Virus record (IMG/VR): IMGVR_UViG_3300029641_000003
Length of the DNA stretch: 64,000 bases
Reading direction: 5' to 3' (one strand)
Source: a virus
Lineage: Duplodnaviria; Heunggongvirae; Uroviricota; Caudoviricetes
Shown: positions 19,455 to 34,152 of the stretch, piece by piece
Position numbering within the stretch: the stretch's first letter is position 1
Layout: each line of letters begins with the position of its first letter
The notes under the pieces: model-generated
Told to the model about the DNA's origin: nothing
Database searches by the model: none
Seen by the model: the letters and a program-made list of their open reading frames with translations, nothing else
Position numbers and translations under genes: made by a program

Positions 19455-19530
19455 TGGTGGCCCCTACCGGACTTGAACCGGTGACCGTGCGATTATGAGT
19501 CGCCCGCTCTAACCACTGAGCTAAAGGGCC
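19455..19530 (-). tRNA. tRNA with CAU anticodon (Ile2-like, or Met)
   Basis: Reverse complement GGCCCTTTAGCTCAGTGGTTAGAGCGGGCGACTCATAATCGCACGGTCACCGGTTCAAGTCCGGTAGGGGCCACCA folds as cloverleaf; resembles recalled E. coli ileX. Confidence 0.8.
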
Positions 19531-20059: not shown

Positions 20060-20149
20060 CTGGCTGGGCGGCGATGACGCCTGTACGCATTTGGTGATCC
20101 GGTTCTGCTTCCGGCATTCGCTTAATTAGCCAAATACTCTTAACGTTGC

Positions 20150-20236
20150 GCTGGCGGAGAGTAATGGAATCGAACCATCATCGCTTGCGCAATGGGACGG
20201 TTTTCAAGACCGCTTGAGCACCATGCTCCCTACTCT
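20150..20236 (-). tRNA. tRNA-Ser (UGA anticodon), long variable arm
   Basis: Acceptor stem GGAGAGT/ACTCTCC plus G-CCA; anticodon arm CGGTCTTGAAAACCG as in recalled E. coli tRNA-Ser; D-arm atypical. Confidence 0.6.
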
Positions 20237-20382
20237 CCAGTGATTGTGGTGGTCGGTACTGATCTCCGACTGCGCCTCTTTTTTTCATAGCCCATAAGGC
20301 CGGTCAGTGCGCTTGATGACTGAGGCATCGATATTTACTACGCCGCCTCGTTGCCATAGGGCGGACTTGCGCGCCAGCAACG

Positions 20383-20486
20383 CGCATTCACCACAACGGA
20401 AAGAGCATTTATGGCTCGCATCGCGGGAAGCGGGAAAAAACCCACGGTAGAGAGTCGAACTCTACAAATGCTCTTACCTGTTGTGT
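20383..20486. repeat. inverted pair of the tRNA-cluster repeat (copies C and D)
   Basis: CACCACAACGGAAAGAGCATTT ... AAATGCTCTTACCTGTTGTG flank a GTAGAGAGTCGAACTCTAC hairpin 3' of tRNA-Thr. Confidence 0.45.
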
Positions 20487-20562
20487 TGGTGCCGGTTAAC
20501 GGACTCGAACCGCTGACATCCTGCTTACAAGGCAGGCGCTCTACCAACTGAGCTAAACCGGC
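20487..20562 (-). tRNA. tRNA-Thr (UGU)
   Basis: Reverse complement GCCGGTTTAGCTCAGTTGGTAGAGCGCCTGCCTTGTAAGCAGGATGTCAGCGGTTCGAGTCCGTTAACCGGCACCA. Confidence 0.85.
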
Positions 20563-20564
20563 AT

Positions 20565-20639
20565 TGGCGATGGTGGATGGATTCGAACCACCGACCAGTT
20601 GGTTAACAGCCAACTGCTCTACCACTGAGCTACACCATC
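20565..20639 (-). tRNA. tRNA-Asn (GUU)
   Basis: Reverse complement ...GTTGGCTGTTAACCAAC...GGTTCGAATCC...CACCATCGCCA; abuts tRNA-Thr. Confidence 0.8.
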
Positions 20640-21950
20640 ACTTGCCGGGTACGTCTCCGGCGAGGGCTTCCACCTCCGTATGCTTTTCGGCGCACCGCGC
20701 CCTGGCTGCAATTCGGTAACAGGGGATGCACAACCCTGGCTTCCAGCGTGATTAGCGCCTTCAGCATGACGGGATATACCCGTTACAAGACATTATTCCA
20801 GAAAGCCATTAACCAATGGCTGTTACGCGGAAAGGACGTAACAGGTAAGGGCGCTGACCAGAAAGACCTGACCCTTCTCATTCATCTGGTTAATCACACC
20901 AGCGCCCTTGCCTGTTATGCCTCCCCGTTCCCTAATACACAGACGGGGACACTCTGCGGTCGATTTTTTGACGGGGGACGACTCATACCCCGTGGTGTCA
21001 GGCTTCTTAGGCCGCTACCATCATCAGATCATCGTTTGCATTTACTTTAATGGTCGGGTTCTAAACCGCCGCAAAGTCGCTAACCATGACGAAAACACTG
21101 AAAAAACACCCACCCGAAGGTGGGCAAATATCCCACTCGCGGTATTGCCACTTAGGCGTATGGTCAACCTGGCAACTCGGTGTCCTCAACGGGGAAGGAA
21201 TAACCCCGCCATACTTACCGCCGCGCCTGTCGCGGTTATCGCTACGTATCAACATAAAAGCCGACTGCCTGAGCAAGATTCACTTTCAAAGGCCCGCAGA
21301 AAGGAATCCATAGTCGGCTTTTATCTTGAAGCGGCTCTCTCTCCGCCCGTCACCGCTCTGTCTCGGTTGTCACGTTTGCCACGCCAGCCGTAACGAGGTT
21401 TAAAGTCTTTGCACGTTTCCATCACTCGACTGCCGTCTGTGGCTGTTCGTTGCAGCGGGGGTGCCTCCCCCTGGGGATATCCCCGGCCTTACCCCATTCT
21501 TTCAAGACACAATGCAAGGCCACATCCGCATAGGTGCATTACCGCAACGTTAAGGAGACTCAGAGTCAGCAAAATAAGAGGAAAACCCAACTCTGCGCCT
21601 CCTTAACGTTGAGGATGTGCACTGATGATGACCCGATGCAGCCTGGCCCACTTAACATACTCACTGCCAGATCATCATCAATGAACACCATAAAAAGACC
21701 TTCCGTGGCTCAAGTCACTGTCGTTTACTCCGTAAAATGCTCTCGCTGAAACCACTTTACGCACTAAACCTGCCGGGCATGTATTTGCACGGTGCCGGAG
21801 CTTTCCCTTACCTTAAAATTTACTTTCTAACACTTAAATTTGTTTGATGCTGGTGGGGAAAGACAATGAAGTGACTATCAAACCCGCAAGCGACATGGGA
21901 AGCTCCCCACCAGCACGAAAAATTCTATGTTAAGTTAACCCCATAATCAA
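20640..21950 (-). ncRNA. ORF-poor, structure-rich region; candidate non-coding RNA(s)
   Basis: 1.3 kb without a convincing ORF; several long perfect stems (21256..21322, 21457..21471, 21544..21610). Confidence 0.3.
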
Positions 21951-21951
21951 T

Positions 21952-21983
21952 ATGTTAGAAAAACAATTTTAATTTTCTAACAT
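21952..21983. promoter_or_regulatory. palindromic operator pair
   Basis: ATGTTAGAAAAACAATTTTAATTTTCTAACAT downstream of the 402-aa gene. Confidence 0.6.
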
Positions 21984-21984
21984 A

Positions 21985-23193
21985 TTATTTCCCGTAAAGA
22001 TTTTCAACTCCACCGTTCTTCTTATCCCACTCGTTCGCCCATACCCGGCAAGCATCAATTATTTCCTGACGGCGATCGCCCTGCATGAACGGAATGCTTT
22101 CATGAAAGCTGCTTGGAATGCAGGCCACACTGAACACTGTATCAAACTCAGTCTGCTTGATTGCCTCCAACGTCTCTGGACGCATTTTCAATTCGTCGAT
22201 CGGTGCATCCTTAGAGTCCATAATCCGGCGATGCAAGCGTGGAAAATCCGTTTCAAGGTACGCCATAATTTTATCTGCCAGGCATTCGTCTATGTCGGTA
22301 TTCCAGTCAGTTTCGAAGCCAGGAATTCGGTAGTAAAGCGGCGTTCCCCATACTGACGGGATCACATCCATCGTCAGCAGGCGGCTGGTTCTGATTTGCT
22401 GATGGTAATTTGCCGTCAGCAACGCTTCGCCACGTTGCCCAGTCTCCGCGACCAGACCATGCGGAAACTCATGGATATAGGCAATAGCTTCTCTTCCGTC
22501 ATACATTAGCGGGAATGTCTCTGGCCTTTGCCCCATGCCACAGGCGCGATTCAGATCATGACCAAGCTCTGAGCACTCTCGTTTCAATGTTTCAATAATG
22601 CTCTGCGCCGCTGCTAACTTTTTACGCAGTGTGACGAGTTCGCCTTGATACTCAACGCATTGCTGATTTAGCTTGGTTAAACGCTCTTTTAGTTCCCGAC
22701 GCTCTCTTTTCAGCGTGCGGTTATCTTTCTCCGCAACATCCAGTCGTTTTGTCAGGCTTGGCGGATAGTCTTTTTTGTAACGACTCAAATCGACTTCAGC
22801 AGATTTGCGCAGTGTATTTGCCTGCTCAAGACGCGCCTCCAGATTGCCGATCTCATTACGCATATTCGCGGCAAATTGATTAACTGCATCCCCCAGGCTT
22901 TCAACTGTCGCTGATACACCAGTGACTTGAGAAAAACGGATCAAGCCATCATTAACGGCTTGCTGATATTCCTCAAACTGATCCACCAGCTTATTGTAAT
23001 CAACTGCCCCATCATCAAGGAGCTGGTTGATTTCCGCCACCAGGTTATCTGTAGTGGCAATGACGCTCTCATGCAGTCGCTTTGACAGGTCATCGCCCGG
23101 ATTTCGTTTCTGTATAAGCGCGATTTGTGTCCGCAGCGTTTCAATTGCGGTTGAGATGATCTCCAGGCTTGATGATTCTACTTGCTGACTCAT
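21985..23193 (-). CDS. coiled-coil protein, flanked by operator-like sites
   Basis: 402 aa; N-terminal half heptad-rich; operator-like motifs at 23214..23228 and 21952..21983. Confidence 0.65.
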   Translation of the reverse strand: MSQQVESSSLEIISTAIETLRTQIALIQKRNPGDDLSKRLHESVIATTDNLVAEINQLLDDGAVDYNKLVDQFEEYQQAVNDGLIRFSQVTGVSATVESLGDAVNQFAANMRNEIGNLEARLEQANTLRKSAEVDLSRYKKDYPPSLTKRLDVAEKDNRTLKRERRELKERLTKLNQQCVEYQGELVTLRKKLAAAQSIIETLKRECSELGHDLNRACGMGQRPETFPLMYDGREAIAYIHEFPHGLVAETGQRGEALLTANYHQQIRTSRLLTMDVIPSVWGTPLYYRIPGFETDWNTDIDECLADKIMAYLETDFPRLHRRIMDSKDAPIDELKMRPETLEAIKQTEFDTVFSVACIPSSFHESIPFMQGDRRQEIIDACRVWANEWDKKNGGVENLYGK

Positions 23194-33824: not shown

Positions 33825-34152
33825 AGTTACGGCCTCGTAAGTTGATAAACAACCTGCGACCCGCTGTCAAACAGGTGGCAGGACGTGACAGGGTTGACAG
33901 ACTGGCACTTACGAAACCAGCAGGCCGAAGCCTCCCCATCACGCCCCACCATAATTCGGGCGTAACGTGGTTTTACGGACACAAAAATACCGCAATATCG
34001 GAAATGTGCGGTTGTCCGCGTAAGTATTCAGGCTGTCAAACCTGGTCGCAGAATTTGCTACGACGGCATGAATATAAGCCTGAACATTAGAAAGATCAAC
34101 AGAATTTTTATCAAATGCTGTTTTTTAGTGACAATGTAAATCATACATTCTT

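Follow-up and report, generated by a model that had tools for sequence, protein, structure and literature searches.

Positions 20640–21990 of a 64,000-nucleotide (nt) stretch of a Caudoviricetes virus (IMG/VR record IMGVR_UViG_3300029641_000003; the whole stretch is called the window) form a non-coding leader on the minus strand, which runs directly into the genes for transfer RNA (tRNA)-Asn (20639–20565), then tRNA-Thr, tRNA-Ser and tRNA-Met, and which contains, at 21099–20922, a core module resembling part of a transfer-messenger RNA (tmRNA). The region is 89.6% identical to phage D6 across 90% of its length and 99.3% identical to a 94-kb PGAP-annotated E. coli plasmid, while its tRNA-proximal 605 nt (20640–21244) are 87–88% identical to P1, P7, SJ46 and RCS47; these matches place the window among the D6-like members of the P1 phage-plasmid group. 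The corresponding P1 sequence leads the ban operon, whose order is P1ban promoter with bivalent C1 operator Op72ab, a “dicF-like region,” trnA(Asn), trnT, tciABC, trnI and ban. The same elements follow one another in the same order in the P1 leader (Pban/Op72ab to trnA) and in the window: operator/promoter (the window promoter being predicted), dicF-like element, terminator hairpin, conserved block, tRNA-Asn and tRNA-Thr, with 20640–21244 as the direct homolog of the P1 sequence (87% identity). The two leaders differ in that the window and D6 carry an additional 650–700 nt of lineage-specific structured RNA upstream, and in that the gene upstream is pmgS-like in the window but dmt in P1. By homology and synteny, the region as a whole is thus a known but unstudied leader of a P1-type operon. 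Although P1 is a textbook phage, its leader is annotated only as a “dicF-like region,” the tmRNA-like part goes unmentioned, and no P1 leader transcript is reported in the literature that we searched.

The stretch 20640–21990 has no conserved open reading frame (ORF), and its stems are conserved. The preliminary description of this DNA had placed a 1.3-kb ORF-free segment inside a minus-strand operon, and the location holds, between an operator-flanked promoter and the tRNA cluster. Only short overlapping ORFs occur, and no coding sequence is annotated in D6, P1 or the 99.3%-identical plasmid. ORFs of at least 25 amino acids are disrupted in most of 13 D6-like homologs, except in near-invariant sequence, and the biggest “intact” one (20748–21050, plus strand, 100 amino acids) is frameshifted in P1; a hidden protein gene is rejected on these grounds. 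The segment does, however, extend to ~21990, harbors a 10-codon tmRNA-style tag frame, and is a mosaic rather than one unit. The proposal of a single large RNA is rejected since each module is gained or lost on its own: D6 lacks the dicF-like element, only the D6 lineage has the 5′ 650 nt, and P1 shares the 3′ 460 nt. That of a decayed gene is rejected for want of a conserved frame and of a pattern of protein homology. An Rfam scan at gathering thresholds found no family in the region, and GOLLD, ROOL, HEARO and OLE had no Rfam match in the window. The further suggestion of a regulatory or decoy RNA came near to the apparent nature of the core module but overlooked a tmRNA-derived tag template with an anti-tmRNA domain.

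The tag frame lies on the minus strand at 21007–21048, where the resume context AAAGUAAAU is followed by the codons GCA AAC GAU GAU CUG AUG AUG GUA GCG GCC UAA (21039–21007), a 10-codon ORF specifying ANDDLMMVAA*. ARAGORN recognized the resume consensus at a relaxed threshold only; the complete tmRNA layouts that it drew in the window at this setting were mutually inconsistent and used arms of real tRNAs, so that they are artefacts and the resume/tag call alone was retained. In an Rfam E-value scan, tmRNA_permuted (RF04321) matched below threshold (24.1 bits versus a threshold of 47) and RF00023 scored 7.6 bits; the module thus stays under the gathering thresholds of both tmRNA models. Its homolog in an SSU5-like Klebsiella plasmid reaches 39 bits with RF04321, likewise sub-threshold, in an alignment across the tag region. 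The module has the GCA resume codon and the hydrophobic-Ala-Ala tag end of a tmRNA, and U-5 and A-4 upstream of the resume codon are conserved, the positions that set the reading frame on E. coli tmRNA. Read from the sequence, an in-frame UAG lies eight codons upstream of the tag and no AUG occurs in frame. Together with U-5/A-4, this makes the tag frame look decodable only by tmRNA-style resumption.

We recovered further members of the family by pattern scans of viral contigs and by BLAST against deposited phages. The tags of 240 copies come in 31 nucleotide versions, which encode 18 peptides that fit AN[DE][DEN]xxxx[AV]A, and the tag has exactly 10 sense codons in every one of the 239 complete copies. 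All three stop codons (UAA, UAG and UGA) are used and the last Ala is encoded by all four GCN codons; between closely related tags, 43 of 69 differences fall at codon position 3, and 43 are synonymous versus 26 non-synonymous. Since the patterns used in searching specified no more of the frame than its first eight bases, this conservation is not a product of the search. These patterns indicate that the tag frame is under coding-type selection. Several tag types carry Y or F at the position matching Tyr7 of the host tag, a residue that is contacted by SspB, and all keep the C-terminal Ala, which suggests a modified rather than abolished degradation of tagged proteins.

The structure downstream of the tag also resembles that of a tmRNA. 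Covariance modeling and covariation place helix 5, the loop of which holds the stop codon, and two H-type pseudoknots (PK2, 20993–20971 plus a downstream CGAC; PK3, 20958–20922) within 20922–21027. A covariance model of the core (R1) has a single match in the window (20924–21098, 97.2 bits, E = 1.7e-24). In the R1 alignment (95 hits, 72 distinct), 97.1% of cells are paired and 19 of 25 pairs have changed on both sides; none of 500 shuffles equaled this pairing and slid controls reached at most 43%. A motif-anchored enumeration likewise gave many compensatory stem versions in helix 5, PK2 and PK3. The model matches neither E. coli ssrA nor the genuine permuted phage tmRNAs from the same scans. 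We found no convincing counterpart of the first tmRNA pseudoknot (PK1) upstream of the tag; that stretch is antisense to the host PK1 instead. Taken together, the tag frame and its downstream structure identify the core module (21099–20922) as tmRNA-derived.

At least 234 deposited genomes of enterobacterial phages from several families carry the core module. It has been recovered in Punavirus (P1-like), D6-like, SSU5-like, Gamaleyavirus, T1-like and Cronobacter phages, an Aeromonas phage and, among Ackermannviridae, Kuttervirus, Erwinia phiEa2809 and Serratia and Klebsiella members, and it occurs in 660 of 5426 complete E. coli genomes (12%). It lies in non-coding DNA, in most of the loci examined beside tRNA genes, and no annotation marks it anywhere. 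Rfam has no such family and we found no description of it in the literature searched; by its conserved sequence and structure, this core defines an undescribed, widespread family of tmRNA-derived phage RNAs. Among viral contigs, L128 and its relatives carry a degenerate P1-type module that has another sequence in place of the 5′ antisense domain and has lost one pseudoknot but retains the ANDDLMMVAA frame; R1 matches only positions 38–173 (47 bits).

What the module lacks is a tRNA-like domain. An acceptor stem with G3-U70, a T-arm and a 3′ CCA were not found in cis: ARAGORN at default settings called no tmRNA in the window or the family loci, a scan for a T-arm with an acceptor returned only the real tRNAs and one T-arm-like hairpin with no CCA, and the E-value Rfam scan of the full window gave no match to a tRNA-like domain. 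In a T1-like phage, at the seed, a TTGACA-17-TAGATT promoter (a consensus match) ends 11 nt before the start of the R1 model, and therefore no acceptor strand would be transcribed. The family thus combines a translatable tmRNA tag frame with the absence of a tRNA-like domain, a combination not found in Rfam. The tmRNA literature describes phage tmRNAs and one form that consists of the tRNA-like domain only (DS6A), and in the tmRNA database papers and other literature searched we found no description of a tmRNA devoid of that domain.

Between tRNA-Thr and tRNA-Ser (20489–20240, minus strand) lies a second conserved non-coding module, related to STnc100, which folds with a z score of −3.0; in it GGUAAGAGCAUUU and AAAUGCUCUUUCC form a long helix, GUAGAGUUCGACUCUCUAC a T-arm-like hairpin, and GUUGUGGUG/CACCACAAU an acceptor-like helix. 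A partial second copy at 20063–19868 matches Rfam STnc100 just below threshold (43.7 bits). In T1-like phages an STnc100-like module directly follows the tmRNA-like one, and variants there have a canonical T-arm, then 7 nt and an A, with no CCA. If this cloverleaf-like element supplied the acceptor and T-arm, the RNA would be a split tmRNA with a phage-encoded partner. The adjacency in T1-like phages, the occurrence of partner motifs within 1.3 kb downstream in about half to three-quarters of copies, and the canonical T-arm variants and acceptor-like helix just described agree with such an arrangement, but the element has neither a G3-U70 alanine identity pair nor a CCA 3′ end, a search of the neighborhood found nothing complementary to the conserved 5′ domain, and protein genes directly follow some family copies (L091, L044). 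We regard a phage-encoded partner of this kind as improbable.

Other partial or rearranged tRNA-like and tmRNA sequences turned up in the same work. Salmonella phage 38 (L139, 1006–1082) has a 77-nt tRNA-like sequence ~120 nt upstream of its tmRNA-like module, uncalled by ARAGORN, with an acceptor-like stem (GGUGAGG/CCUCUCC), a T-arm, a shortened anticodon arm and a 3′ end reading ...CCUCUCCAACA. Four low-GC viral contigs (L032, L064, L082 and L124) hold genuine circularly permuted two-piece tmRNA genes by ARAGORN, with the tags ANDDAFYGEVRLAA, ANDEKFRIAA, ANDERFALAA and ANDDVYNLALAA; their resume context, AAAGUAAAU|GCAAACGAUGA, is shared with the tmRNA-like family. A fifth contig, L052, has the 5′ half of a permuted tmRNA gene and no ARAGORN call.

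The 5′ domain of the tmRNA-like RNA (21061–21099, minus strand) is a 39-nt sequence antisense to nt 67–107 of the host tmRNA. RNAduplex predicts 31 base pairs between the window domain and E. coli ssrA (−36.7 kcal/mol), and across the family the whole 33–43-nt domain pairs colinearly with ssrA nt 67–107, a target that takes in the 3′ strand of PK1 (UAAAAAGCCGCAAA), the GUCGC surrounding the resume codon, and codons 3–6 of the tag. The near-invariant motif (U)AGUUUUCGU(C) is the complement of these tag codons (GACGAAAACUA) and is the longest perfect ssrA complement in ~120 of ~135 unique family cores. All 14 representatives, taken from different phage families, select the same ssrA site (28–33 base pairs, −32 to −40 kcal/mol), and for the compact forms none of 200 shuffles matched the duplex (z = −3.2 to −6.2). 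Pairing of the 5′ domains to their own tag region is much weaker (−17 to −30 kcal/mol), and the phage tags diverge from the host tag exactly at codons 3–6. A cis partner (CGAAAAC) for the invariant GUUUUCG motif was found only in the 3′ extension of the P1 lineage (as CGAAAAG at +350) and is not general. The target segment of ssrA is near-invariant across Enterobacterales; Pasteurellaceae ssrA, an example of a divergent host tmRNA, carries GACGAACAAUAC. Thus the RNA has the extended, conserved complementarity of an antisense small RNA to tmRNA, as predicted pairing, and we found no description of an anti-tmRNA RNA in the literature searched.

Such a domain invites the interpretation that the RNA is purely an antagonist or decoy, which would block trans-translation by antisense pairing or by titrating S1, RNase R or SmpB, its own tag never being translated. 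The antisense domain and the lack of a tRNA-like domain in cis would both fit, mycobacteriophage DS6A offers a precedent with its tmRNA made of the tRNA-like domain only, and a similar molecule strongly inhibits tmRNA. A decoy needs no reading frame, yet the invariant length of the tag, its third-position enrichment, the four Ala codons and the three stops all speak for one that is read, as do the tag types with an aromatic residue at the host Tyr7 position. We consider a pure decoy rather unlikely.

The facts established are the homology and synteny with P1, the non-coding nature of the region, its modules, the tag frame with its coding-type conservation, the presence of two pseudoknots, the absence in cis of a tRNA-like domain, and the complementarity to ssrA. 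To account for them together, we propose that the region is the repressor-controlled leader and precursor of a D6-like phage-plasmid, whose core is a tmRNA-derived RNA with no tRNA-like domain that completes itself on the host tmRNA as a hijacked two-piece tmRNA, a reading that we hold to be about evenly poised between right and wrong. The predicted promoter (~21950–21922) would drive ~1.3 kb of structured RNA into tRNA-Asn, -Thr, -Ser and -Met, a polycistronic precursor giving small stable RNAs plus tRNAs. RNase P would cut at tRNA-Asn and an endonuclease behind the hairpins, yielding a core product of 21099–20922 with a lineage-specific extension to 20640. The 5′ domain would then strand-invade the host tmRNA, open PK1 and mask the resume codon and tag codons, leaving the phage resume codon ~20 nt past the end of the duplex, where the host's own is 24 nt away. 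The host tRNA-like domain and SmpB could next deliver the phage tag (ANDDLMMVAA here) instead of ANDENYALAA, such that rescue of ribosomes would continue while the host degradation tag was swapped for one chosen by the phage. The broader claim, that many enterobacterial phages (P1/D6, SSU5-like, Ackermannviridae, Gamaleyavirus and T1-like) encode such a “tmRNA hijacker,” a natural inter-genomic two-piece tmRNA assembled in trans, is possible but doubtful.

Several points weigh against this proposal. Transcripts, processing and pairing are predictions from sequence throughout the family, and the window promoter is a consensus match. Two terminator-like hairpins stand between promoter and core, and the core may therefore be poorly expressed or made otherwise. 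The ribosome would need to accept a template on a chain separate from the tRNA-like domain, and we know of no case in which a tag template supplied in trans is loaded by pairing to the tag region. Long forms of the 5′ domain, including that of the window, have modest z scores (−1.4 to −2.8), the duplex shuffles preserve mononucleotide content only, and in the copy of the Aeromonas phage the middle block of the domain is missing; given this loss and the near-invariance of host tmRNA at the site, co-variation with other hosts is uninformative. The complementarity could also be left over from a tmRNA fragment that was once duplicated in inverted orientation. Finally, family members are phylogenetically related, and their counts are thus not independent events.

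Among known systems, the coding piece of permuted tmRNAs (RF04321, RF01849-51; phage-borne in L032, L082 and L124) is the closest, with AAAGUAAAU|GCA AAC GAU, a hydrophobic-Ala-Ala tag end, a stop codon inside the loop of helix 5, pseudoknots downstream of the tag, and a separate chain held by base pairing (predicted here). The phage module differs in having no acceptor 5′ strand and no T-arm/CCA acceptor piece nearby, in falling below the Rfam threshold, and in carrying a domain antisense to a standard host tmRNA. The DS6A RNA is also a phage-encoded partial tmRNA thought to disturb host trans-translation, but it keeps the tRNA-like domain and lacks the tag, whereas the present family is a tag template that lacks the tRNA-like domain. 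Large ornate phage RNAs such as GOLLD and ROOL are found near tRNA genes, and the T4 tRNA cluster co-transcribes stable RNAs; the window RNA resembles these as a non-coding RNA adjoining phage tRNA genes and differs in being modular, with one module of recognizable origin. Trans-translation affects phage growth, and the present family suggests that phages carrying it tamper with ribosome rescue. It offers a testable handle on how phages deal with trans-translation and on tag templates supplied in trans. Such regions are left blank or labeled as hypothetical proteins in annotation, and host protein quality control may be altered where P1 or T1-like phages serve as tools or therapeutics.

The remainder of the leader was examined in alignments of the window, D6, two further D6-like plasmids and P1 and, separately, of 14 D6-like sequences. 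The region is a mosaic of a variable 5′ part (80–85% conserved) bearing conserved hairpins, a block at 21575–21260 (90–99% conserved) that holds a nearly invariant three-hairpin junction, and a 460-nt block reaching to tRNA-Asn that is 95–100% conserved across the P1 and D6 lineages. Of the 5426 complete E. coli genomes, 101 have the 5′ 650 nt, in D6-like plasmids only, and no homologs were found when we searched beyond such plasmids. Modules are thus gained and lost between close relatives and the 5′ part is restricted to one lineage, as would be expected of a recombination scar, a decaying mosaic that includes a piece of tmRNA pseudogene, or of hidden small proteins; the conservation of blocks between P1 and D6 despite differing flanks, covariation in many helices and the lack of a conserved ORF make either possibility highly improbable.

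Upstream, the motif WNTGTTAGAAA (at most one mismatch) occurs 23 times in the window versus 8.6 expected (0 of 100 shuffles). An inverted pair of these D6-type repressor operators (TATGTTAGAAA twice, 21949–21986, minus strand) sits at the position of P1 Obanab, is conserved in D6-like sequences and is the counterpart of P1 Op72ab; it adjoins a predicted sigma-70 promoter (TTGATT-17-TAGAAT, 21922–21950, minus strand) from a promoter scan, with hexamers conserved in four D6-like sequences and an expected start at ~21915. Operators and predicted promoter mirror P1 Op72ab/Pban. A third operator copy, an exact motif match, lies within the leader (21822–21835, minus strand).

The leader is rich in structure, as the preliminary description had it: the minus strand of 21240–21917 folds at −259 kcal/mol (z = −4.55, 0 of 20 shuffles) and the plus strand at −208. 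The stems reported there are kept by compensatory changes across the 14 D6-like sequences. From its expected 5′ end, the minus-strand RNA would begin with a stem-loop (UGCUGGUGGGG/CCCCACCAGCA, 21848–21915), the stem of which is invariant save for one G-C to G-U change in 1 of 14 homologs, whereas its interior varies. A long helix follows in the RNAalifold prediction (UGAUGAUGAUC.../...GGUCAUCAUCA, 21622–21681), in which G-U pairs have been exchanged for A-U and for G-C, consistent with a minus-strand RNA. The next hairpin, of 15 base pairs (21545–21611), was first reported as a 13-base-pair inverted repeat, which exists but is shifted by one base (21545–21557/21599–21611); two of its pairs are fully compensatory in 14 homologs (G-C to A-U at 21607/21549 and A-U to G-C at 21592/21564). 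The three-hairpin junction (21457–21527; arms 21521–21485, 21484–21473 and 21471–21457) has 99% column conservation versus 80–85% in its flanks and is confined to D6-like plasmids; GGGGGTGCCTCCCCC, singled out earlier, is located at 21457–21471. The last hairpin (AAAAGCCGACU/AGUCGGCUUUU, 21256–21322, minus strand) precedes U-rich sequence and is weakly terminator-like, with two compensatory pairs (21323/21255 and 21321/21257); the earlier stem AAAAGCCGACT/AGTCGGCTTTT maps here, at 21256–21266/21312–21322. The conserved hairpins of these D6-specific 650 nt may stabilize the RNA or guide its processing.

Downstream of the core, the minus-strand 3′ extension of the P1/D6 lineage (20640–20921) contains an 18-base-pair stem (20917–20899/20857–20839) with G-U pairing and more hairpins, and ends at the 5′ end of tRNA-Asn, a predicted RNase P site; it is 95–100% conserved between P1 and D6-like sequences, save for a patch at 20781–20819. 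A second terminator-like hairpin (GCCCACC-UUCG-GGUGGGU followed by U6, 21101–21125, minus strand) was returned by a terminator scan just before the core and is conserved between P1 and D6, apart from a C-G pair changed to U-G; as a GC-rich hairpin before a U run, it is a predicted intrinsic terminator. Two such hairpins between promoter and tRNAs, with an operator inside the leader, could mean that the leader acts only in cis, attenuating or timing the tRNA and early genes, the tmRNA-like piece being a hitch-hiking relic. The core module, however, recurs in unrelated contexts, followed by different tRNAs or by protein genes, one phage has a consensus promoter immediately before it, and selection acts on both its frame and its pseudoknots; we therefore think it quite improbable that the leader has a cis-regulatory role alone.

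The “dicF-like” element (21144–21222, minus strand) is a multi-helix RNA of ~80 nt, 92% identical to positions 2501–2598 of the Qin locus, and is found in the window, P1 and a Shigella plasmid but is missing from D6. In an alignment read by eye, four helices vary on both strands and two of them cross the others, and the element is probably double-pseudoknotted. It is not DicF: the 52-nt DicF model (RF00039) has no match at E values up to 10 in 20100–22100, whereas the Qin control scores 76.7 bits, and the homologous Qin sequence ends 24 nt upstream of DicF (2622–2673). The two loci are alike in this sequence and in lying in long early leftward transcripts, and differ in that DicF itself is missing from the window. 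Transcripts of the DicF locus type are cut into small RNAs. The element occurs, always unannotated, in 4416 of the 5426 complete E. coli genomes at up to eight places per genome, and in lambdoid prophages it lies directly upstream of DicF and dicB.

Two of the tRNA genes are unusual. The tRNA at 19455–19530 (minus strand, anticodon CAT), called as Met, occupies the position of P1 trnI, annotated as tRNA-Ile2(CAT), and may therefore be a lysidine-dependent tRNA-Ile. That at 20152–20238 (minus strand) is tRNA-Ser(UGA) by ARAGORN, was flagged as atypical by the D6 annotators too, and has as its sole clan-retained Rfam match the tRNA-Sec model (44.6 bits, sub-threshold). Elsewhere in the window, C4 antisense RNA and its a1/b1 target sites (33871–33956 and 34025–34077, minus strand) score above Rfam thresholds and mark a P1-type immI immunity region, which is overlapped by a sub-threshold isrK match.

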